From contig CP120463.1 of the NCBI GenBank assembly GCA_034226945.1, positions 186,001 through 250,000 on the forward strand: a DNA stretch of 64,000 nucleotides, given 5' to 3'. Source of the stretch: Picochlorum sp. SENEW3. Lineage: Eukaryota. This document shows, piece after piece, positions 5,619 through 39,134 of this stretch (the first letter of the stretch is position 1; each line of letters opens with the position of its first letter). Below the pieces are notes generated by a model. The model was not told the origin of the DNA. It did not search any database and saw nothing but the letters and a program-made list of their open reading frames with translations. A program made the position numbers and the translations under genes.

Positions 5619-7291
5619 TCAAACAATCAGGGAGCGAGGGAGATCACAAACATAGGTGCTGAATGTATTCTGTGGGTTCAAGATGACCACATACAGCTGA
5701 TCAATCGCAGAAATTCCTGCTCTAGAACTTCTACTCGAATTTGCCGGTAATAGCAGGGAAACGAGGAGAGGTTCTTGCACACGAGCTGGGAGGAGGACAT
5801 CATCTTCCTGATGCTGGTCAGTGTCTTTAGGCACATCCAAGAGGCGAACGGGCTCTTCATTTTCCTGGGCGCTATCATCTGGGTGAAGTTTTAAGCCGCT
5901 TGATCTACCTTTGAACCCGTGAGTTCCCATGACGTACTTTTCAATGCTCCTTTTGCTCCGAAGTCTATTCTTTGCTGGAACATCATCTGCATGGAATTCA
6001 AAGACCTTTCTGCACATTTGTGGAGCCTCGAGCCCCGCTGATTCAAATATTCTTTCTGTTAACGCTGGGAAAGCGGTGGCAGCAGGAAGAGTGTTCTTTT
6101 CAATATCAGAGTCTGCCTTGTCAAGAGCAAGAGCAGCAGGTGCAATATCTTTAAGATTTGCAAGAGCATGCTTTGGAAGCTCTTGTACTCCCTGATCATT
6201 CAATAGAGCATGAACAGTTTCATTGAAATAGTCTGATAGACTGGCCTCCTCGGCGCTACTCTCATGAACCATCATGAGGCTCCTTCCCTTCTGTGTCAGT
6301 AGTGGCCTCTGTTGGGAGGATGAATGGCCTCCTTCCGGCAAATATCCAACAGATGCCGAAACCACCTGATCTGTCTTTCTAATACTTATTGGGCTCATGA
6401 ATAAAAACAACGAGAAAAGAGTCAAAAATGCTGCACCAGTCCCTCCAATCTTCTTCCTCTTGGAATTCCTAGGTTGCACCGCAGAGTCCACTGCACCTTG
6501 TGTCTGGGACGAGGAAGCACCAGACGCTCCATCTGACCTATTGGCGGTCCCTTTTGCATCTGGAATGGTGATGCATTTAGCCACTGGAGCACCTTTTGCG
6601 TCAGATTGAGATGGCTTCAGAGCAGTGGGGACATCTGGGACAGCCAATTTAGCAGCTTGACAGACATCCTTCAGATGATGCCGGAGCAGACAATTCTCGG
6701 CGGCTAATCTTTGAATAAACAAATTCAGTTGCGAATTCTGTTTCTTCAATTCTTGGCAAGAACGTTGCAAATTCATGAGTTGCTCCTTTTTCCGAAGCCT
6801 GGACAGATGTGCATTTTCTCTATTCCTTTTCATCCTAGCCAACCTCTTCTCTTCCTCCAGCCTCTCTTTATCATCTTTGATCTCGGTTTCTTTCGATATA
6901 TCTTCTTTGTCTGACGAAGATCTACCAGCGGTATTCCTGTTTCCACTCTCCGAAGTGGAAGGCGTTGCTGCATTTCCAGTCTGAGATGCTGTACCAACAT
7001 CCGTAGGCGTTGTCATATCTCTGTCAACCTCATCTCCGTCAAACATAGCCAGCAAATCGTCCAAATCTAATTCACAAGTGAGATCAGAGCTCAATAAATC
7101 AGGAGGCAACTCTTCGAGACCAGGAAAAAAGGCAGGGTCCGCTTCAAGTCCCAAATCCGCCATCTGTAGCAAAAATAATATCACATTAGTTTATTATATA
7201 AACATCCGTTCGTTGATAACGGGATATATGCTGAAGCGGCAAGTGTTTCTAAACTCACCTGCGGTTCTTTGCCCAGTTCAAAGTCTGCCAT
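5619..7291 (-). CDS. Membrane-anchored bZIP transcription factor, bZIP17/28/49-like (exons 7259-7291, 5619-7163)
   Basis: Basic region KRLARMKRNRENAHLSRLRKK with a leucine zipper; KRKK then TM helix AAFLTLFSLFLFM; lumenal GRSLMMV and C-terminal LYVVIL..TYVCDLPR resemble plant bZIP17/28. Confidence 0.8.
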
Positions 7292-7812
7292 GCCCTGTAT
7301 CGTGACACGCTTGAAAATAATAGGCTATCTACTACAGAAAAATTATTTCAAAACCAAACGAGGCACTGAAAACGGCCACTCGGCGTCGTCGATGTCTCCT
7401 AGACTGAGCCGTGTGCTGTTTCTAGAATCTTTGTGACAGGCTGAATCATACAATAACAGTCATATTCTCAGACGTGTTTTGTCATGGAATTTCCTCAATT
7501 TATAACCATTTTCGAGCACAGACGATGGGTCCAAATCCCCACGGGACAGGAGTGTGTTGCAGCGCTCGTGCGTGTTCTGCATGCCCTATCAAGGGTCATG
7601 TTGGATGGTTACATGAATGAAACACGTTCAGGAAAAGAAAGTTTTGGGGCTGAAACCATCAATAGCCCCTTGGGCCAACTGCATTCGGTCCAAGAAAGAT
7701 AATAGAGATGCCACTGTGAGACAGAATAATTGCTATGATATTCTCTAGTTGATTCATCACTTTTAATACCCGCTCTCAGGCGACGGGGCCAAATGTTCAA
7801 GTGACACAAGCC

Positions 7813-8913
7813 ATGAGAAGAAGGGGAGTTGGACAGAGTTCTCGGAGCTATTTCTCCATCATCAGGAGGTTGTTATCATCTCTCACTGAGTCTGAAAGAA
7901 TAGGTTTCTGTTTTGATATCGATGGGGTTCTTACAAAGGGAAGCAGAGCATTGCCAGAAGCTCAAAGAGCTCTAGAGATTCTGCACAACTCAAATGGAAA
8001 GCCCAGGATGCCTGTGGCATACCTAACCAATGGAGGTGGTGTCACGGAGGGTGATCGATCTAAACAGTTGGCATCTATGTTTGGGATTCAGATAGATCCC
8101 GAGCAGATGATTCTGAGCCATTCTCCTTTTCGTAAGCTCAGTTCAAAGTTTCAGTCCAAGCCTGTACTTGTTGTTGGAAGGGGTGACTCGCAACATGTTG
8201 CGAGGCACTATGGGTATTCCCACATCATATCATCAAAGCAATTGATAGAAAGAAATCCATCATGTGTACCTTTTATGAACGCAGAGAGCATGCATGCAGA
8301 CTCTGAGGGAGTGCCACGGTATGGGACTGAACAGAATCCAATAGAAGCGATAATGATATTTACTGACCCTTCGGACTGGTACTTGGAAATTCAAGTCATA
8401 CTAGATCTGCTGCTATACGGTGGGGTTTTTGGTGGAACAACTGAATACCTGAACAGTCGAGGACAGCAGCCGCAGTTGTTCATTTCACATGGGGATTCAG
8501 TTTGGTCCAATGAATTTCCTACCCCTCGATTGGGCCTGGGATCTTTCACGTCATGTTTGGAGACACTATATAAAGATAGAACTGGAATGAATCTAGCGTA
8601 TAGAGTGTTTGGAAAGCCACACAGGGAAGCATATTTGCTTGCTGAAGACGCACTCCAAGCTCAAGCATCAAAATTGTGGAATGCACCCACATGCTCGAAA
8701 ATTTTCGCTATTGGGGACAACCCTTCTGCGGATATTAGAGGAGCTAATAGACAAGGAGATCCTTGGGTTAGCGTTCTTGTTCGAACCGGAGTCTTCAATG
8801 GTGGCTTGAACTGCTCTGTTGACCCAGCACATATCGTAGTGGACAATGTTGAGGACGCTATCCTCACAGCCATGAATCATTGCAGGAGAGATAGATGGCA
8901 TTCTTTACGATAA
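7813..8913 (+). CDS. HAD class IIA hydrolase, HDHD5/CECR5-like
   Basis: FDIDGVL, LTNGGG, FGKP and IGDNPSADIRGAN motifs. Confidence 0.88.
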   Translation: MRRRGVGQSSRSYFSIIRRLLSSLTESERIGFCFDIDGVLTKGSRALPEAQRALEILHNSNGKPRMPVAYLTNGGGVTEGDRSKQLASMFGIQIDPEQMILSHSPFRKLSSKFQSKPVLVVGRGDSQHVARHYGYSHIISSKQLIERNPSCVPFMNAESMHADSEGVPRYGTEQNPIEAIMIFTDPSDWYLEIQVILDLLLYGGVFGGTTEYLNSRGQQPQLFISHGDSVWSNEFPTPRLGLGSFTSCLETLYKDRTGMNLAYRVFGKPHREAYLLAEDALQAQASKLWNAPTCSKIFAIGDNPSADIRGANRQGDPWVSVLVRTGVFNGGLNCSVDPAHIVVDNVEDAILTAMNHCRRDRWHSLR

Positions 8914-9555: not shown

Positions 9556-9870
9556 CTAAATCTCTATCGACAGCAGCACACGGGGTAACAGCAGCAGCAG
9601 TAACAAATGAACTCTCCTTTGAGTCTTCCAGTCTTCTGCACAGATGCGACTATCTAAGCAACATATTTCATCTCATATTGAAACTCAGAATGACTGTGTT
9701 ATGCTCTAGCTTGGATGTTGAAGGAAATGAACAACAAGAACTGGAGACTGGAAATCAAATTGAATTGTGAGATCTGAGTTCATAGATCTCTGAACCAACG
9801 AGGAGTATGGCAGAATTATTTAATGATACAGATATGCATTGAAAGAAAAGTGGAATAAAATTTTGTCAAA

Positions 9871-10804
9871 ATGGATGAAATGCGAGCAATGCTGGATGAC
9901 CTCATGGGAAAGCACAGAGATGTGCCCCTAACAGAGAGGGAGAAGTTTGTGTACGCTGCGCATTTCTTCGCTTGTATCCATTCATACATTAAAACTATAT
10001 CATATGTTTTGTAGGAAGGAGCGGAAGTTTTCGGATCAGGATGTATGCAAATATTACCTGTGTGGGCTTTGTCCTTACGAAGAGTTCAAAAGGACGAAAA
10101 ATGACCTTGGGAGCTGCCCAAAGGAGCACGATTCAAATTGCCGAGAGCAGTGGAATAGGTTGTCTGAGAGAGAGAAGGAGCGCTATGGGTATGAGAGGGA
10201 TTTAAAGCGTTGGTTGGATAGGTTGGAAGCAGAATTGAAAAAGAGAAAGGATGCAAATCTTGCGAGGATTAATGCGACACAGAAGAATGTGTACTTGGCA
10301 GAAGACCAAGCTGCACTTGATAGAATGGCAACACAGATTGAAGAGTTGCTGCTTGGGGCGCAGGTAAAGGGAGAGCGGGGAGATGTCGATGGAGCAGAGA
10401 TATTGGCTGATCAGGCTGATGCGATCAAGGAGAGGAGGGATGCATTGCAGAGAGACGCTGATACTCGGAGTGGGAATAATATAACCAAAGGGCTGGTGCA
10501 GTCTGTGTGTCCTGTTTCGGGACTTATATTGAATGATGAAGAAGGGAGACTTCGGGATCACCATTCAGGCAGGAATTATAATGCATGGAAGAAGGTTCAT
10601 GAGAAGCATGCTGAGCTGGAAGAGAAGTTTGAGAAGCGACGGCGGTCGAGGCAGCCAGAAAGGAGTAGATCTCCTCGCAGAAGAAGGAGTGATAGAGATG
10701 ATTATAGTAGTAGTAGGAGACGAGGGCATGCCAGGGAAGGTATAGAGAAGAAGAAGACAGAGGATGACGATTCGGAGGAGGAAGAAGGACAGGTGATTGG
10801 GTAA
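9871..10804 (+). CDS. LUC7: U1 snRNP-associated LUC7-like protein (intron 9951-10014)
   Basis: MRAMLDDLMG start, VCKYYLCGLCP zinc finger, degenerate second finger VCPVSG..DHHSG, RS-rich tail. Confidence 0.9.
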
Positions 10805-10830
10805 CAGTAGTTGTAGCAGCGTTACAAATG

Positions 10831-11706
10831 TTATGATTCCGCCTCTTTCAGCTGACTTGACGCATATTTATTGGATTCAAATTTGGATGTGGTGAATTCA
10901 GATGTTGTTGGGAATTCTTGAACAAGAGTATGTAATGTCTGAATATAGACACTGCCCTCGTCCATTTTCAAATCAAGAACATGCCCTCCTTTGCTATAAT
11001 CTGCCGTCATGAAATGCAAATGATACCCTGGCACTGACAGGGCATGTCCAAGGAAACCAGGCGACCAGAAGCCGACAAGCCAGCCCTCTTGATCATTGTG
11101 AAACTCCATGATTGCCTGCTCCCGGGTGACTTCCACCAATGGCCTGTTGTGTTCTTGTTTTCGCACAGCTCTAACCTTGACATAGCTGAAAGATCCTTTA
11201 ATCTTAATTGCAGCAAATAAGTTCTTAGATGACAGCCATTGATCCAAAGCACTGTGAAGATCAGACCAACCAACATCATGAATGGTATGGTGGACACTAT
11301 GCTCATCTGAAAATGTGCAAACCATCATAAATGGAGAGGTGCTCTCAGGAGGAATAATGTGACATTCGCCCTTCTCAGTTTGCTGATACGCCACTCCATC
11401 GATCACAACAACTTCACCATTGAGCATACTCAACGTGCCCAATCCAAAGTCTCCATGCTGCAATACCTCACCTACTGTTATTGTACCTGAAAGCAGGCCT
11501 TCCACCAAGTCTAATATTGGAGCAGACACAAACAATGTCTGCTCTGATGAAGGCTTATCACCCTCCTGAGGTATATGCACTGATGATGGGCGCAGAACTC
11601 TCTCAATGCAAGTGATTGCGTACTCCTCAGGTGATATTCCTGCACTGTGCGACGCAAGCACAAGCGGTCGGTGTAGAGTCTCTGGAAGGTCGAGCGTCAA
11701 TTTCAT
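10831..11706 (-). CDS. alsD: Alpha-acetolactate decarboxylase (AlsD/BudA family) with an N-terminal ribbon-helix-helix-like extension; intronless
   Basis: HGDFGLGT..LNGE, PF, GYHLHF..GGHVLD metal-binding motifs; about 50 extra N-terminal residues. Confidence 0.92.
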   Translation of the reverse strand: MKLTLDLPETLHRPLVLASHSAGISPEEYAITCIERVLRPSSVHIPQEGDKPSSEQTLFVSAPILDLVEGLLSGTITVGEVLQHGDFGLGTLSMLNGEVVVIDGVAYQQTEKGECHIIPPESTSPFMMVCTFSDEHSVHHTIHDVGWSDLHSALDQWLSSKNLFAAIKIKGSFSYVKVRAVRKQEHNRPLVEVTREQAIMEFHNDQEGWLVGFWSPGFLGHALSVPGYHLHFMTADYSKGGHVLDLKMDEGSVYIQTLHTLVQEFPTTSEFTTSKFESNKYASSQLKEAES

Positions 11707-12001
11707 CGTTCAAACCCTTACCAGATTATCGTCCAATTATTTCACTTTGGCTTCTCGTATGGTGTTTTTAAAGAAAATACCCATTTGTAAAGATTCTAGG
11801 AGTCTGTAGTCCGAGAATTAGGTATTCTGTAGTGCTTTTATTGCTTCGGTCGTTCCAGCGTCTTGAGCGAGTTCTTTCTTGATTGGATATTTGATTCATT
11901 CTTCTTGGATTCCCAATCCCTCGGAAATGAACCCTGCAAAAAAAATAAAATTATTACACGTACTACTATTGTCTTTATTCAAAGGCTGCTGACGAATATC
12001 C

Positions 12002-13699
12002 ATGGGTTTGACTGGAGCAGAAGTGCTTGTGCAAAATCTCCTGTCTCAAGGAGTGGAGAGAGTATTCACTCTGCCAGGTGCAAAGATTGATCGGGTTCTT
12101 GAAGCGATTCGGGCTCTGGGTGGGAAGATTGAATTGATTTTGTGCCGGAATGAGCAGTCTGCTGCGTTCATGGCGGCAGGTCATGGCAGGAGGACTGGCT
12201 CTGCTGGGGTTGTCCTTGTGACCAGTGGGCCTGGTGTAGCCAACCTGACAACGAGTTTAATCACAGCAACGTGTGAAGGCGATGCAGTTGTCGCAATTGG
12301 TGGAGCAGTGCCTTTGTCTCAGAGACTGAAAAGGACACATCAGAGCATGGACAATGTTGGTATTCTGAGGCCTGTTTGCAAGTATGCAGTTGAGATAGAT
12401 TCCCCTCTGGCAATCGGTGAAGTCATTGGAAACGCTTTCAGAAATGCAGAGGAAGGTCGACCTGGAGCTGCTTTTGTTTCGATTCCAATGGATGTCATGG
12501 TCGATGAATGTCCAGAAGTGCATATCATGACTCCAGTAAAACCCCCGTCCATGGGACCAGGAAACAGAGAGTCTCTTGATGCAGCAGCAGCAGCATTAAA
12601 CAAGGCCAAGCAGCCTCTCATTTTGTCTGGTGGATTGGCATCGACTCTGGATGCAACAATTGCTCTCAGAGCGCTTTTATCAATCCATCCTATACCAGTG
12701 GTGTCAACTTTCCAAGGTACTGGAACAGTCGCAAAAGAGATGGCCTATTTGTATTGTGGAAGGGTGGGCATCTGCAGAAATCAACCTGGGGACAACCTGT
12801 TGGAATCAGCAGATTGCATCTTGGCCATTGGTTACGACGTCATCGAATATGATGCCACATTGTGGAACAATTCAAAAGAAAAAAAGACCATCATACACCT
12901 TGATGCAATTCCATACGATGTGGATAATAACTATTGCCCAGACATTGAAGTTGTTGGCTCCATTGCCGAGTCCTTGAGGGAACTTACATCCAGGCTTACA
13001 CTTTCGGCATCCTTGTCTCCGCACGAGAACGAGCATTTGATCGAGGCCAAAAAGCAACGTGATGAATTTTTGGAAGGAATCGAAGTAAAACATGTTGATG
13101 GTCTTGTGCATCCGCTTGACATTGTATCAGGACTGCAAAAAGTGTCGGACGAGTTTGATGACGTGACATATTTTGTGGACATGGGATCTTTCCATATCTG
13201 GATCGCTCGCTATTTGGTTGTCCATCGCCCGAGACAATTGGTCAATACAAATGGTCAACAGACTCTCGGTGTCGCGTTACCGTGGGCAATGTCTGCCGCC
13301 TTTGATGCCAAAAAGAATGGCACTGACATGACTGAGAAGCTCATTTCAGTCAGTGGTGACGGAGGCTTTCTTTTCTCTGCTGCTGAACTCGATACTGCCG
13401 TGCGATATGATTTAAATTTTGTTCATATCATCTTCGACGACATGTGCTACAACATGGTCAAGGTACAGCAAGAAAAGAAGTACCATGGCAAGTCTTGTGC
13501 TGTGAATCTTGGTGCTGTTGACTTTGTGAAGTTTGCAGAGTCCATGGGAGCGACAGGCTTTAAAGTTACAGATGCGAAAGATGTGTATCCGACCATAATG
13601 AAGGCGATTGGTATCAAAGGACCAGTCGTGATTCAGATCATGGTTGATTATTCAGACAATGGCACTCTTTTTGAAGAAACCCACGACTCCTTCCATTGA
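12002..13699 (+). CDS. alsS: Catabolic (AlsS/BudB-type) acetolactate synthase, ThDP-dependent; intronless, no transit peptide
   Basis: PGAKID, RNEQSAAFMA, THQSMDN, DMGSFHIW, NGQQTLGVALPWA, SVSGDGGFLFS, VDYSDN; these resemble bacterial catabolic ALS rather than plastid AHAS. Confidence 0.9.
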   Translation: MGLTGAEVLVQNLLSQGVERVFTLPGAKIDRVLEAIRALGGKIELILCRNEQSAAFMAAGHGRRTGSAGVVLVTSGPGVANLTTSLITATCEGDAVVAIGGAVPLSQRLKRTHQSMDNVGILRPVCKYAVEIDSPLAIGEVIGNAFRNAEEGRPGAAFVSIPMDVMVDECPEVHIMTPVKPPSMGPGNRESLDAAAAALNKAKQPLILSGGLASTLDATIALRALLSIHPIPVVSTFQGTGTVAKEMAYLYCGRVGICRNQPGDNLLESADCILAIGYDVIEYDATLWNNSKEKKTIIHLDAIPYDVDNNYCPDIEVVGSIAESLRELTSRLTLSASLSPHENEHLIEAKKQRDEFLEGIEVKHVDGLVHPLDIVSGLQKVSDEFDDVTYFVDMGSFHIWIARYLVVHRPRQLVNTNGQQTLGVALPWAMSAAFDAKKNGTDMTEKLISVSGDGGFLFSAAELDTAVRYDLNFVHIIFDDMCYNMVKVQQEKKYHGKSCAVNLGAVDFVKFAESMGATGFKVTDAKDVYPTIMKAIGIKGPVVIQIMVDYSDNGTLFEETHDSFH

Positions 13700-13781
13700 A
13701 GTCATTCGCTGATCTGGCTCATGTGTGGCTGTGTATCCAAACCCTTTCCAGAAAAGTTGAAGAATATTTTTGTAAATCACT

Positions 13782-14968
13782 ATGCGGAGCTTTATACACA
13801 ATGCGTACAAAAATGCCTCAGAATACATACTACCACCTCTCAGCGAGAGTCGGTTTGAACAAAAAGGAGTACGTTTGTTCGTATAATCGATCCTTGAATC
13901 CACTGTGTGGATCATTATGAATATGTAATGACTATTTGGGTCATATGTGTTGCTAGGTGCTTACTCCAGAAGAGTTTGTTGAGGCTGGGGATTTCCTCGT
14001 TAGAAACTGCCCTACGTGGTCTTGGTGCGTCAACTATCGACTTGTACATCTCATATGAATGTTGTTAAAAGTAAATCTATGTTTCTATAGGGAATCGGGA
14101 GACGACTCAAAGCGTTGGTCATTTTTGCCGAGGAACAAACAGTACCTGACTACTAAGAATGGTATGTGAGGCTATGGATACTTCACGACACGTTGCGTTC
14201 ATTATTACCGCCGCTTGTACTGCAGTTCCTTGCTTTAGGAGAGCTTCGGCGATTGAAAGCTACCAGGATGAGCCACAGAACCAATCACACGACTCTGAAG
14301 AGGGTTATGATTATTTGCCAGGCACAAGCAATGCCAAGCATTCTGTATACGATATCGATCAAGGTGATATCGGCGAAGATGAAAAAAATGCGGAAGATAT
14401 TCTAGATATATCGAATTTGGATATCGTGGATGAGGAGGAGATAGATGAAGGTGCTGCACCCTGTGCTGGCGTTGGGCTCACAGAATCACAGAATCAAGTG
14501 GCAGGTGATCACGATGCATCTGTCATTCTGACAAGGAAGTACACTCTCATTATTTCGTATGATAAGTACTACCAAGTCCCTAGAGTCTGGTTAATTGGAT
14601 ACAAAGAGGATGGGAGTCTGTTGTCTCATACAGAAATTATGGAGGATGTGATTGGAGATTATCATGACAGCGGGCGAAAGACTGTAACCATCGAACAGCA
14701 TCCGCATAAAAATGCTGGAGGGTCAGTGGTTTCGATTCATCCATGTCAACATGGAGCTGTCATGAAAAAGTTGTCGTCGCTGATTGCTGGGGAGAAGGGA
14801 TTCAATATTGAACAGTGCGTTGATGGTTCAGGATTCGCAATGAAACTGAGTTATTTTCACCCATTACTTTGATCATGTTGCAGGTATATGGTACTCTTCC
14901 TGAAATTCATCTCATCAGTCGTTCCTACGATTGAATATGATTACACAATGGCATTTGGGTCCCCCTGA
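13782..14968 (+). CDS. ATG3: Autophagy E2-like enzyme ATG3, 5 exons
   Basis: Spliced [35 protein letters not shown], catalytic [24 protein letters not shown]. Confidence 0.95.
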
Positions 14969-35791: not shown

Positions 35792-37114
35792 TTATTTACC
35801 AGCTCCACCTGTGCGGAGTGCTTGCAAGATTCGGCCTCCACCTGGAACTGGATGTGTTCCAGTATACTGCCCCAATTGGGCCTCGGAGTTTGCCTTTGCA
35901 AGCTTGACAAGAATATCTTGGGCTTTGTTCCAATCCTCAGATCCAATATCAGCTCCAGCCCATGTTTTCAAGGTTGTTGATTGCAAGGCACGGCCATAGG
36001 AGAAGGTAAGGGACCATGGGGCATTAGGGCATGCTTCCTGAAGGGCCTGAAGATTTTGTGTGCTCTCTTCTTCAGACATTCCTCCAGACAAAAAGTGGAT
36101 TCCTGGAACTGCTGCTGGAATTGTTCTAAGCATAGTTCTCACTGTATACTTGGCGACCTCCTCTGGGGATGCAGATGGTGCATCAAGCCCAGGCAAACAC
36201 ATGTTTGGCTTCAAGAGCATACCTTCCTTCAGGATGCCGTATTCATTCAAGAAGCGCATGACATGGCTATATACGTATTCACTCCAATAAGCAGTTTCCT
36301 CAATGCTGTAAGATCCTGGGCCCAGTGTGACTTCAGGCTCAACAATTGGTACCAGCCCATTCGCTTGGGCAATTTGGGCGTATCTGGCCAGTCCATGGGC
36401 ATTCTCCAAAATAGCTTGGTTGCTTGGACCAGACTCATCAGTGATACGGAGCACTGCTCTCCATTTTGCAAATCGTGCACCCTGCTTGTAATATGCTTCA
36501 CAGCGAGCCCCCAGGTTGTCCAAACCTTGGGTTGTAGTCTCTCCATCAGACCCTGGAAGAACCTGAAGACCTGTGTCAACCTTGATGCCTGGAACGATTC
36601 CCTGTTTCTTCAACACATCAACAAACTGGACTCCATCATGAGTAGACTGATACAAAGTTTCTTCGAACATGATGGCTCCAGAGATGTACTGCCCAAGACC
36701 AGGAGCGGTGTACAAGAGTTGCCTCCAGTTTCTCCTCATTGTTTCCGTATTTTCCACCCCCACAGAATCCAGCCTCTTCCCGGTAGTTGCATTCGACTCA
36801 TCACTGGCCAAGATACCCTTCCCGCGGGTGGCAATGTACTTTGCATTGGCTGCCAATTCCTCTTCGAAAGGGTTGCTCGCTCGTGCCTTGACGACACACC
36901 GTGCTGCACGATGCTGCCTGATAGAGCGAGATCTACCCACAGAAGGGGCAGATATGTGCTGAATTTTGGATTGCTGTAAACCTGCATGCCAAAGAGTCTT
37001 GGTAATGCGATGCCAGCTCGTGGGTAGACATGTGCGTGTTGAATCACGTATGACTCATGTTCTGTTTAGATGGAATCGAATGGAAATCATTAACGTACTC
37101 AAAGTTTGTATCAT
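35792..37114 (-). CDS. Class I fructose-bisphosphate aldolase, probably plastid-targeted (16-nt first exon 37099-37114)
   Basis: GKGILASDES, GIKVD, AKWR, VPIVEPE, LLKPNM, FLSGGMSEEE, FSYGRALQ; transit peptide ending VVKARA. Confidence 0.93.
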
Positions 37115-37311: not shown

Positions 37312-38408
37312 TTACTCTGCATCACGAGTGTCCTTCTCAGGAGGGGGAACAATCACCACTGGAATATGCAAGTGCTTTGCACACCAGTCAGAGACACTAC
37401 CAAGTCCAAGAACACCCAACACGCTCCTTTTGAAGTCTCCCATACATCGTGAGCCCAATACAACTGCATCAATATCGTTCGCTTTCACATATTTTTGAAT
37501 AGCAAGTGATACATCACTCGCTCCTCCTTCTGATTCGAGAACCTCACACACAATGCTCTCTTCAGAAATGCCCATCTCAACAGCCTTTCTGGAAGATTCT
37601 TTCACATTATCTTCTGCTATACGATGCAGTTTCTGATCCTCTTGCTCTATTTCTTTCTGTGACAACACATGTGCAGCTGAACAGTCCTCTTCAGCAATCT
37701 GCAAGACAAGACAGATTATCATCATTGCATCCTGTTGCACGTCACGTCACACAAGACACGTACATCATATGGCGCTGGTAATGACACTGATGCAATATGA
37801 AGCGTATTTCCTTTTTGGAAGGCATGTGTACACGCCCATTCAACTGCTGCCCTGCTGCTTGTTGAATCATCCACACACACAAGAATCTTCTCCAAAGCGT
37901 GAACCTTGTCATCAGGCTGGTGCACAATACACACAGGAATATGAAGATGATGAGCAGAATATTGACCTACCGAACCAAATCCAATCAAGCTCATCAGAGC
38001 ACTCTTCGCAGCCCCCATGTGACGACTTCCAAGTATCAAGCAATCTGCCTTGCTCTTTGTACACCAATTCACAATGCTCTCTGCCACTCCAGATGCCCCT
38101 CCAATTGCCTCGAGCGCATGCAATGACGGATGAAAATCATTGAATACGTTCTCCGCTGTCCTCTGTAACAAATTGTCCACGCGTGCTGCTTCCTCCTGTT
38201 TTCTGTGAGCATACGTTTCAGCAACAAGGCCAACAGGGCCACTCGTCGTCAGCGGTGGAATCGGAGCAACATCACCAGGCACAATATACTTTACAGATAA
38301 CAAGTGAACCCTATCCTCTGGTCGAAGCAGAGACCCTTTCGCCCACGAACAGGCAACTTTCGAACTTTCGCTGTCATCCACCGCAATGGCAATGACTCTT
38401 CCACTCAT
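37312..38408 (-). CDS. Tandem-domain universal stress protein (intron 37699-37763)
   Basis: Two USP repeats: IAVDDS..GSRHMG..GSVGQY and VCVDDS..GSRCMG..GSVSDW. Confidence 0.88.
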
Positions 38409-39134
38409 TCTTACAAATAGATACTGAATTCTTTACTTGCGTAGAAATTTATTTATTTATTTTCGATGATGGCACCTGTACTATGCCTCTCCTCTCATTG
38501 ACGAGAGAGACCCTCCTCCGAGGATTCCGGAAATCGGACGACATGCCACGTCATCAATCTCTGGCAGCAACGTTGCTGTGCAGTATCTTGGTCAAAAATC
38601 GACTTGTAGTGCCACTACATACAGATAAATGCAGAAACGTATAGAACAGGAAGGTGGTGCAAAAAAGATAAACGGATAGTTAATTGATGCTTTGTTGCTC
38701 TTGTTGTCTGCTACAACACGTGGCAAATTGTAACGCTTTCCCTCCTTATGATTCCGACATTCTTCTCCTCCTCATTCCGGCCAAAATAGTAGCTGCCGTC
38801 ATTTCATCATTCTTTTTTTCGCACAAGGCCTTCAAGTCTTTTTTGAGACTTTCATGTGTAATAAAACATGTACATGTTCATGTGGATCGTGACAACATTG
38901 AGATCCCAGCGAGTAAACGTTCCGTCCGGTACCCAGTGATACTATTTCATGCAAAGTTTCCATTTTTTAGAGCTTCATGCAAATAAATATTAATAATTAG
39001 TCCTTAAGAATGCAATGGATGGTAGAAGAAGAGAGTATAGAGCGGTGGGTGCTGAGTATCAGCCAGGGGCTGGCAACGAATCCTTTTCCTTTTCAACACC
39101 AATGAAAAGGTGTTGAAAGATGTGCAAGCACATC

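Follow-up and report, generated by a model that had tools for sequence, protein, structure and literature searches.

What brought two enzymes of bacterial acetoin operons side by side into the nuclear DNA of a green alga, and what would they do there? The locus that raises this question lies in a 64-kb stretch of DNA (the window, considered at its full length) from a nuclear chromosome of Picochlorum, a small marine green alga of the Trebouxiophyceae and a relative of Chlorella. The Pfam families found among the window ORFs were all ordinary eukaryotic or algal ones (for example RPS3Ae, PsbP, exportin-5, and class-I aldolase). One protein of the pair, AlsS, which is a catabolic acetolactate synthase, showed 98% identity to an incomplete Picochlorum renovo model in EukProt and 72% to a P. 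soloecismus protein labelled 'acetolactate catabolic'. These families and identities bear out the algal nuclear setting proposed in an earlier note on this DNA. Our overall reading is that this locus in the nuclear DNA of Picochlorum probably encodes an ancient route of bacterial type by which two enzymes, likely in the cytosol, would convert pyruvate to acetoin.

The second protein of the pair is an acetolactate decarboxylase (ALDC) of the AlsD type. Its CDS (10831–11706, minus strand, 291 aa) and that of AlsS (12002–13699, plus strand, 565 aa) are arranged head to head with 295 nt between the ATGs, and since both ORFs span the bacterial models end to end, both genes are intronless; ORF coordinates and family models thus agree with the layout described in the earlier note. 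The divergent spacer between the start codons (11707–12001, 295 nt) is presumed to be a shared promoter region. Short head-to-head spacers are ordinary in the compact Picochlorum genome. On the 3′ side of ALDC lies the host gene LUC7 (9870–10804, plus strand, start approximate, at least two exons), convergent with ALDC and with the two stop codons only 26 nt apart. PF03194 matched the LUC7 ORF at 10004–10804 (3.8e-43, profile positions 24–244 of 246), and an exon encoding MDEMRAMLDDLMGK was located upstream of this ORF in a different frame. The host gene 3′ of AlsS is ATG3 (13950–14872, plus strand, start approximate; PF03987, 2.4e-30), which has several exons, the upstream ones in two other frames. 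These matches and exons substantiate the claim that intron-containing genes stand on either side of the pair. A TGTAA motif, the putative polyadenylation signal, follows each gene: at 10822–10826 on the minus strand, 4 nt after the ALDC stop, and at 13771–13775 on the plus strand, 71 nt after the AlsS stop. Of the 23 window ORFs with at least 250 aa, 13 had this motif no farther than 150 nt beyond the stop, as compared with 11.6% of 5000 random positions, so that its enrichment after stops backs the signals assigned earlier.

AlsS contains the Pfam domains TPP_enzyme_N, _M, and _C and exceeded the cut-offs of both NF006378 (676.5 bits, cut-off 510) and TIGR02418 (633.8 bits, cut-off 551.1). 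Residues 4–562 cover profile positions 9–552 of 556, a full-length match that begins so near the start of the profile that it leaves no room for a presequence. The biosynthetic model TIGR00118 gave 310.9 bits, below its cut-off of 538.35. Comparison with solved structures showed scores of 473–529 bits for catabolic acetolactate synthases (1ozf 494.6, 4rjj 472.9), with the enzymes of K. pneumoniae and B. subtilis as the best relatives, and of about 174 bits or less for solved AHAS. AHAS-like proteins stood apart in the AlsS tree, with a branch length of 1.8 on either side. Taken together, the failed biosynthetic model, the distance to solved AHAS, and the split in the tree confirm that AlsS is of the true catabolic type and not an FAD-type AHAS.

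The assignment of ALDC is equally clear in PF03306 (5.5e-66, 222.5 bits, cut-off 25) and in the TIGR01252 equivalog (198.9 bits, cut-off 180.65). Its catalytic domain (10861–11535, minus strand, residues 58–282) covers TIGR01252 profile positions 3–225 of 232 and was modelled by AF2 with pLDDT mostly above 90. The best solved relative is the Brevibacillus ALDC (4BT2), in which Glu65, Arg145, His194, His196, His207, and Glu253 are the zinc ligands and catalytic residues. All six (chain 4bt2_A) have identical counterparts in the algal protein, namely E98, R179, H229, H231, H242, and E290. Five of these positions were invariant in an alignment of 26 ALDC sequences, and E290 was conserved in at least 90% of them. 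In ESM Atlas, ALDC matched its own record and, beyond that, only clusters of bacterial ALDCs. Both enzymes are ordinary as such, and public protein sets already carry labels for them.

The catalytic domain of ALDC is preceded by an N-terminal stretch of 57 residues. In-frame stops precede the ATGs of ALDC and AlsS by 1 and 3 codons, so neither protein can have an N-terminal extension without an upstream exon. The ALDC N-terminus aligned with the N-termini of bacterial ALDCs, and profile-profile comparison of the algal and bacterial segments gave a probability of 96.8% (E 2.4e-10, 38 columns). The AF2 model shows an extended start followed by helices at residues 9–22 and 26–38 (pLDDT 84–91). 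Among the relatives, the bacterial ALDC P0075 matched Pfam RHH_1 at 24.1 bits (cut-off 20.5), and the Micractinium ALDC P0015 matched RHH_5 with an E value of 0.0028, under the cut-off; residues 1–64 of the window ALDC returned zero Pfam matches at E up to 10. Judging from these alignments, the 57-residue N-terminus is not a transit peptide and appears to be a ribbon-helix-helix (RHH)-like domain (residues 1–40; 11587–11706, minus strand; followed by a low-confidence linker at residues 42–48) inherited from bacterial ALDCs. In the alga it may serve in dimerisation or have another function. The stops just before the ATGs and the match to bacterial N-termini are in keeping with the earlier statement that both proteins are devoid of transit peptides.

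The divergent arrangement was also found outside the window. A Picochlorum-clade contig (L083), which is eukaryotic and also bears Slu7 and CPSase, carries ALDC on the minus and AlsS on the plus strand, separated by a 287-nt spacer; its ALDC has a 74-nt GT-AG intron, gained in that lineage. The sister contig L081 contains VDE, for which the best named match was Picochlorum SENEW3 at 73%. In two further relatives, the clusters of ALDC and AlsS come from contigs of matching length. The spacers of the window and L083 had 4 8-mers in common, where shuffles averaged 1.4; with 45 of 500 shuffles reaching as high a count, this is not significant. Across 80 metagenome loci of AlsS relatives, ALDC was located next door in 66; in 60 the two genes were adjacent and co-directional, and in 2 divergent, one of these being an alga. 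No virus-borne relatives were detected in the viral contigs scanned with both alignments. The Picochlorum clade also contains a second group of ALDC paralogs, apparently unlinked to AlsS.

Proteins of bacterial type encoded by genes without introns could also reflect bacterial contamination or a chimeric assembly, an explanation that we rejected. Logan contigs from three other public runs cross every junction: LUC7-ALDC (X3 9900–11124, X10 10293–11631), ALDC-AlsS (X3 11617–12519, X10 11570–12070), and AlsS-ATG3 (X10 13586–14043, X12 13646–14181). The assembly is thus sound, and the misassembly that the earlier note wished to see checked is not observed. Against contamination also stand the eukaryotic genes with introns that enclose the pair on a single sequence, the orthologous linked pairs on further algal contigs, one of which contains an intron of spliceosomal type, and the host-like composition. 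For ALDC and AlsS, respectively, we determined a GC content of 0.453 and 0.467 (22 other long ORFs, 0.471 ± 0.018), a GC3 of 0.428 and 0.442 (0.455 ± 0.039), and a codon index of 0.756 and 0.743 (0.754 ± 0.022); both genes are fully ameliorated to the host. We regard contamination or chimerism as extremely improbable. A bacterial alsSD operon captured recently and by Picochlorum alone would fit an intronless pair amid intron-bearing neighbours, and 22 of the 26 bacterial HGT candidates that PMC6141220 gives for P. costavermella are likewise intronless. This scenario was discarded in view of the trees: the algal ALDCs form a 15-row clade with 100/100 support that includes Micractinium (the cluster of one row, P0012, contains a P. 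soloecismus protein), and the algal AlsS proteins form a 14-row clade, also at 100/100, that includes Chlorella sorokiniana. It is further opposed by the host-like composition, the intron gained in a relative, an AlsS identity that within the Picochlorum clade already drops to 63%, and a ceiling of identity to prokaryotic proteins of about 44% for ALDC (best matches 41–44%) and 51% for AlsS (48–52% for bacterial proteins among the rows listed, 49–51% for the named ones). Recent capture is therefore very unlikely in our estimate. As far as the trees can tell, the pair is old and common to Chlorella-like relatives and does not represent a genus-specific acquisition of an operon.

The horizontal gain suggested by the earlier note holds with respect to a bacterial source, which is the parsimonious reading because every named non-algal relative is prokaryotic; it does not hold as a recent or lineage-specific event, since the clades reach C. 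sorokiniana and Micractinium. Broadly distributed eukaryotic homologs, which would have spoken against such a gain, were not seen among the named relatives. About one quarter of the database proteins are named, so that a range restricted to Chlorella relatives may understate the eukaryotic distribution. No sister group of AlsS was recovered, and rooting with AHAS-like proteins gave a four-way split of AlsS lineages; consequently, it is from distribution and not from topology that a nesting of the algal clade within bacteria, and with it the direction of transfer, is read. The expectation that HGT surveys might already list these genes was not confirmed in Table 3 of PMC6141220, which contains neither ALDC nor AlsS, although a glycerol dehydrogenase is among its candidates. 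The pipeline of that study sought Picochlorum-only clades placed beside prokaryotes, a filter that an older pair shared with Chlorella would fail.

As to the number of donors, the proposal of one operon from one donor finds no clear support: the nearest ALDCs are stand-alone genes in genomes without AlsS, no sister of AlsS was recovered, and the AU tests are equivocal. The careful ALDC tree, which is unrooted, places the algal clade together with 18 stand-alone bacterial ALDCs (99/93) and keeps the 16 ALDCs encoded beside algal-like AlsS genes separate from it. The genes could accordingly have been acquired twice and clustered later, ALDC from a stand-alone RHH-ALDC lineage without AlsS and AlsS from an alsSD-operon lineage. 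In line with this, just 6 of the 80 nearest prokaryotic ALDC loci had an ALS-like gene in the vicinity, although many of these loci are cut by contig ends and several of the genomes are incomplete MAGs. All five genomes with sister ALDCs had a best AlsS-like match of 29–30% identity or none, and the neighbourhoods of seven stand-alone bacterial ALDCs revealed no common context (CheR, cyclases, deacetylase, efflux pumps). The AU test for a common donor gave p 0.047 on a careful 64-row tree, a borderline value for a group chosen after the tree was seen, but p 0.222 on the 90-row tree. As AlsS is without a recovered sister, no conflict between the ALDC and AlsS trees can be demonstrated, which counts against separate acquisitions, and the presence of ALDC next door in most loci of AlsS relatives makes a single donor operon the simpler source. 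Taken as a whole, the sequence comparisons are equivocal: a common donor of ALDC and AlsS is neither demonstrated nor clearly rejected. We judge two acquisitions to be doubtful, and we hold it to be rather improbable that genes of two donors were joined head to head only in the algal nucleus and then kept for long with some 290 nt between them. In that scenario, the retained RHH domain might even have a part in regulating the two genes.

As to whether the pair is expressed, the oligo-dT metatranscriptome X17 provides a weak hint of transcription: 6 of 6 contigs fell within the two coding regions and zero on the flanks or spacer, yet this environmental library may hold DNA. The stretches without X17 coverage are no sign of silence. 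Two possible RNA runs, X10 and X12, behave as DNA, with no joints and with flanks and spacer covered, and so have no bearing on expression. No transcript ends were detected in the runs mapped to the locus.

For the function of the pair, the preferred reading of an acetoin route would work as follows. Prokaryotic genes would have entered an ancestor of these algae long ago and been inherited together since. Two pyruvates would be joined into alpha-acetolactate by AlsS, which depends on thiamine diphosphate and is of the catabolic, FAD-independent type; ALDC, a zinc enzyme, would then decarboxylate this product to acetoin. Both proteins would reside in the cytosol, as neither has room for a presequence, and the short spacer would act as promoter region for both genes. 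The route could offer a pH-neutral outlet for excess pyruvate, for instance when cells are stressed by darkness, low oxygen, or other conditions. The bidirectional promoter and the fermentation or volatile-signal role named in the earlier note are proposals of the same standing. Alternatively, the main job might not be acetoin fermentation but control of acetolactate or diacetyl, formation of another carboligation product, or the balance of branched-chain amino acids, which ALDC serves in lactococci. The second ALDC paralog group of the Picochlorum clade, the frequency of stand-alone ALDCs in prokaryotes without AlsS, and a 64-kb window without a butanediol dehydrogenase would be compatible with such roles. 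Both proteins, however, pass equivalog models of the catabolic pathway, their adjacency has been kept in at least two algal lineages, and they are devoid of presequences, whereas algae make branched-chain amino acids in the plastid. A different main job seems improbable to us, and the function that we infer as most likely is the conversion of pyruvate to acetoin in the cytosol.

The known fermentation products of green algae are formate, acetate, ethanol, lactate, hydrogen, and glycerol. In the literature searched, neither an ALDC nor an acetoin route native to algae was described, and the words acetolactate, acetoin, and butanediol had zero occurrences in PMC12458973, PMC11092101, PMC6811619, and PMC12366059. 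If active, the pair would provide Picochlorum and Chlorella-type algae with a pH-neutral overflow route for pyruvate. This would matter for survival in ponds that are dense, dark, or poor in oxygen, for the exchange of volatiles with bacteria, and for the carbon losses of production strains, which can now be gene-edited. The locus would also be a clean case of a bacterial pathway kept together after transfer into a nucleus, with a conserved divergent layout, one intron gain, an ALDC duplication, and a retained domain of bacterial DNA-binding type.

Bacterial acetoin operons are represented by alsS-alsD of Bacillus subtilis, with the regulator AlsR, and budA-budB-budC of Klebsiella, with BudR. 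The algal pair resembles alsSD/budAB in that it comprises the same two enzyme families, passes their equivalog models, and has the genes adjacent. It differs in being nuclear and in consisting of two divergent, monocistronic genes, each with its own TGTAA, in place of a co-directional operon; no LysR regulator (AlsR/BudR) or butanediol dehydrogenase was found among the scanned ORFs of the window. With the HGT candidates described in PMC6141220 it shares intronless, bacterial-type genes in a compact Picochlorum genome. AlsS belongs to the same ThDP-enzyme superfamily as the biosynthetic AHAS (ilvB/ALS) of plants and algae and has the same three-domain layout, but it fails TIGR00118 and has no transit peptide region. 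Unlike the algal ALDC, solved ALDCs have no RHH-like N-terminal domain, and alignments with them begin at query residues 37–62. The nearest counterparts of the algal ALDC are bacterial RHH-ALDC fusions (for example P0075, P0030, and P0034–P0036), which have the same two-domain layout and homologous N-termini and are the closest relatives of the algal clade in the tree. Most of the fusions tested stand alone, and their genomes have no AlsS, whereas the algal counterpart sits beside AlsS. DNA binding is putative for all of these proteins, and the N-terminus of the algal ALDC, unlike that of bacterial P0075, has drifted below Pfam detection.

The two genes of the pair, ALDC (acetolactate decarboxylase; 10831..11706, minus strand, 291 aa) and AlsS (catabolic acetolactate synthase; 12002..13699, plus strand, 565 aa), lie head to head with 295 nt separating their ATGs, and both are uninterrupted ORFs, in agreement with the earlier note's description of an intronless bacterial-type pair. 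ALDC matched PF03306 (E 5.5e-66) and exceeded the cut-off of TIGR01252 (198.9 vs. 180.65 bits). AlsS passed the catabolic models NF006378 (676.5 bits, cut-off 510) and TIGR02418 (633.8 bits, cut-off 551.1), but stayed below that of the biosynthetic model TIGR00118 (310.9 vs. 538.35 bits). Solved structures gave the same picture, with scores of 473–495 bits for Klebsiella and Bacillus catabolic ALS and 507–529 bits for two reconstructed catabolic ALS, vs. about 175 bits at most for AHAS (biosynthetic acetohydroxyacid synthase) and glyoxylate carboligase; a grouping with FAD-dependent AHAS, named earlier as grounds for refutation, was thus not found. In an alignment with 4bt2_A, ALDC has identical residues at all six of H194, H196, H207, E65, R145, and E253, the positions that bind zinc or take part in catalysis in the Brevibacillus enzyme. 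Across an alignment of 26 sequences, five of these positions do not vary, and the sixth, which is E290 in the window ALDC, hardly varies.

The pair is flanked by LUC7 and ATG3, both of which require upstream exons from other frames, as expected from their earlier description as intron-containing. All other Pfam-matching ORFs of the window belong to ordinary eukaryotic or algal families (RPS3Ae, FtsH, Furry/MOR2, NDH2, class-I aldolase, PsbP, exportin-5, and others). Two Usp (universal stress protein) ORFs adjoin each other at 37315-38432 (minus strand), beside the class-I fructose-bisphosphate aldolase at 35795-37054. Misassembly or contamination was set aside, as Logan contigs of other public sequencing runs span all three junctions from LUC7 to ATG3: LUC7-ALDC (run X3, 9900-11124; run X10, 10293-11631), ALDC-AlsS (X3, 11617-12519; X10, 11570-12070), and AlsS-ATG3 (X10, 13586-14043; run X12, 13646-14181). 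A partial EukProt model of Picochlorum renovo shares 98% identity with AlsS, and a P. soloecismus protein labelled ‘acetolactate catabolic’ shares 72%. The composition of both genes is host-like: GC, GC3, and codon index are 0.453, 0.428, and 0.756 for ALDC and 0.467, 0.442, and 0.743 for AlsS, vs. 0.471 ± 0.018, 0.455 ± 0.039, and 0.754 ± 0.022 (mean ± sd) for 22 other long ORFs of the window.

Each gene also has its own TGTAA, as had been claimed; the motif, which serves as a polyadenylation signal in green algae, lies 4 nt past the ALDC stop and 71 nt past that of AlsS. Of 23 long ORFs, 13 have a TGTAA within 150 nt 3′ of their stop, vs. 11.6% of random positions, an enrichment consistent with a putative polyadenylation-signal role. 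LUC7 (plus strand) and ALDC (minus strand) converge, with stop codons 26 nt apart (10802-10833). The LUC7 stop is not followed by a TGTAA until 126 nt further on, within the ALDC coding region, so the 3′ UTRs of the two genes probably overlap.

The 57 residues preceding the ALDC catalytic domain are not a targeting peptide; they have counterparts in many bacterial ALDCs, to whose N-terminal extensions they align. A 9-sequence algal N-terminal profile matched a 13-sequence bacterial one over 38 columns (probability 96.8%, E 2.4e-10). One bacterial ALDC passes Pfam RHH_1 (ribbon-helix-helix; 24.1 bits, cut-off 20.5), other bacterial ALDCs and Micractinium give RHH matches below threshold, and the N-terminal stretch of the window ALDC has no Pfam match. 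The AlphaFold model of ALDC (mean pLDDT 86.1) has an extended start, helices at 9-22 and 26-38 (pLDDT 84-91), and a low-confidence linker at residues 42-48; the modelled fold is the pattern expected for an RHH monomer. The ALDC N-terminus is thus probably an inherited RHH-like domain. The reading frames are closed by stops 1 and 3 codons 5′ of the two ATGs, the AlsS match starts at profile position 9, and orthologues of both proteins share the start positions. Given the stops and the AlsS start, a presequence would be impossible for either protein barring a spliced-on upstream exon so far unseen, in line with the transit peptides reported missing before, so that a cytosolic location may be assumed by default.

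The divergent layout was found again in a second alga. An AlsS metagenome scan gave three contigs (L081–L083; GC 0.61–0.62) with AlsS 63% identical to that of the window. These are eukaryotic by gene content (Slu7, carbamoyl-phosphate synthase, amino-acid transporter, violaxanthin de-epoxidase, glutathione peroxidase), and the de-epoxidase has Picochlorum SENEW3 as its best named match (73%). On L083, ALDC lies upstream of AlsS on the opposite strand with ATGs 287 nt apart, an arrangement like that of the window, which has therefore been kept over ~37% AlsS divergence. Comparison of the window and L083 spacers revealed no significant common motif. In two further relatives, ALDC and AlsS clusters are on equal-sized contigs (5621, 7707, and 8465 in one case, 15563 in the other), which indicates linkage there too. 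The L083 ALDC is broken after ‘...VAYQQ’ by 74 nt starting with GT and ending with AG (8339-8412, minus strand). This interruption is missing from the window ALDC and from P0010, an uninterrupted form from a close relative, and it is an intron gain in a bacterial-type gene of a high-GC Picochlorum-clade alga. On L081, the violaxanthin de-epoxidase (6120-7394) lies about 4 kb from AlsS, and relatives of the two proteins (P0300 and P0370; P0123 and P0130) are on equal-sized contigs (15563, 50348). The window has ATG3 and a helicase in this place, so AlsS-side synteny differs among Picochlorum lineages.

Relatives of both proteins form graded series of identity to the window. For AlsS the steps are 77, 72, 63–67, 53–55, and 50–52% (named: P. 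renovo, P. soloecismus, and Chlorella sorokiniana), and for ALDC 58, 53–55, 49–52, and 41–42% (named: two Micractinium species, with P. soloecismus in the cluster of one row). The C. sorokiniana AlsS (P0140) is a 955-aa public model that ends in a BTB/POZ domain (PF02214); it is probably a gene model that has run on into its downstream neighbour, and not a real fusion. The nearest prokaryotic ALDCs are 41–44% identical (one-genome-per-species data), and bacterial AlsS proteins among the matches listed 48–52% (named bacteria 49–51%). In careful maximum-likelihood trees, for which bacterial rows were thinned and the long-branched AlsS rows L034, L142, and L150 omitted, each protein forms a single algal clade (ALDC, 15 of 64 rows, 100/100, stem 0.78; AlsS, 14 of 45 rows, 100/100, stem 0.47), and earlier quick trees (90 and 63 rows) agree. 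As each clade holds Picochlorum together with Chlorella or Micractinium, the acquisition would be older than their split. This, and a pipeline that sought clades restricted to Picochlorum, explains why neither gene is among the 26 Picochlorum HGT candidates of PMC6141220 (Table 3), where a prior listing had been thought possible.

Whether the pair came as one operon from a single donor, as the earlier note proposed, has to be weighed against separate origins of ALDC and AlsS with later clustering, a more interesting alternative that we consider rather unlikely. Among the best 80 metagenome loci from an AlsS-started search, 66 carry ALDC, and most of the other 14 end near the gene. ALDC is adjacent and co-directional at 60 (31 alsS-alsD, 29 alsD-alsS) and co-directional 0.9–1.2 kb away at four; two loci, that of the alga L083 and L142, are divergent. 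In the ALDC tree the algal clade joins 18 stand-alone bacterial ALDCs (99/93, 64-row tree), those named being Pseudomonadota, one Thermodesulfobacteriota, and one Verrucomicrobia MAG, with two more labelled delta-proteobacterial, while 16 ALDCs neighbouring algal-like AlsS genes fall separately. An ALDC-started search found an ALS-like gene, in one case merely 29% identical, at six of the best 80 genome loci, many of them short. In five genomes of the ALDC sister group the best AlsS-like match was 29–30% identical, a similarity of AHAS and not of AlsS level, or absent (one genome). Forcing algal with AlsS-linked ALDCs, a grouping defined only after seeing the tree, cost 10.0 log-likelihood units in the 90-row quick tree (p-AU 0.222) and 17.0 in the 64-row careful tree (p-AU 0.047). 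The AlsS tree gave no resolved bacterial sister to the algal clade, and rooting on AHAS-like proteins yielded four AlsS lineages with their split order not recovered. Given these AU values and the lack of an AlsS sister, a common donor is neither demonstrated nor clearly rejected. Many prokaryotic ALDCs (L001–L080), often with an RHH-like N-terminus, stand alone, and their neighbourhoods have nothing in common; catabolic AlsS was found in none of five such genomes (G001–G005). A scan of viral contigs found no relatives.

The supported reading is a predicted cytosolic pyruvate-to-acetoin route, in which AlsS would convert two pyruvates to acetolactate and ALDC would convert acetolactate to acetoin. 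A weak hint of transcription, and the sole one, comes from X17, an oligo-dT metatranscriptome: all six contigs (95–99% identity) map within the coding sequences of the pair, and LUC7, ATG3, and the spacer have none, though such libraries can contain DNA and contigs cannot rank genes. Neither a LysR regulator nor the butanediol dehydrogenase sought at the earlier note's suggestion was found within the 64-kb window. Acetoin is reduced by certain bacterial glycerol dehydrogenases, which makes a Picochlorum glycerol dehydrogenase a candidate lead for the acetoin-to-butanediol step absent from the window. One is among the Picochlorum bacterial HGT candidates (PMC6141220, Table 3). The Picochlorum clade also has a second ALDC paralog group (three rows, 97/91, careful tree; P0011, P0012, P0013, and P0417, the P0012 cluster including P. 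soloecismus NSC_05082), sister to the AlsS-linked group and with no sign of AlsS linkage; ALDC may therefore act also apart from AlsS.

A full-text literature search found no paper on native ALDC or an acetoin route in green algae. Judging by titles and abstract openings, papers with ‘acetolactate decarboxylase’ and ‘microalga’ among the matches listed concern bacteria, engineered cyanobacteria, or are reviews. Acetolactate, acetoin, and butanediol are absent from the main texts of the Picochlorum/Trebouxiophyceae genome papers examined; the two genes may be listed in supplements or other surveys, and public protein sets already label both. These are ordinary enzymes in an unusual host, and what makes them worth following up is the conserved divergent layout together with the probable inherited RHH-like domain. 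By bacterial precedent, their acetoin may serve as a neutral overflow or fermentation product.
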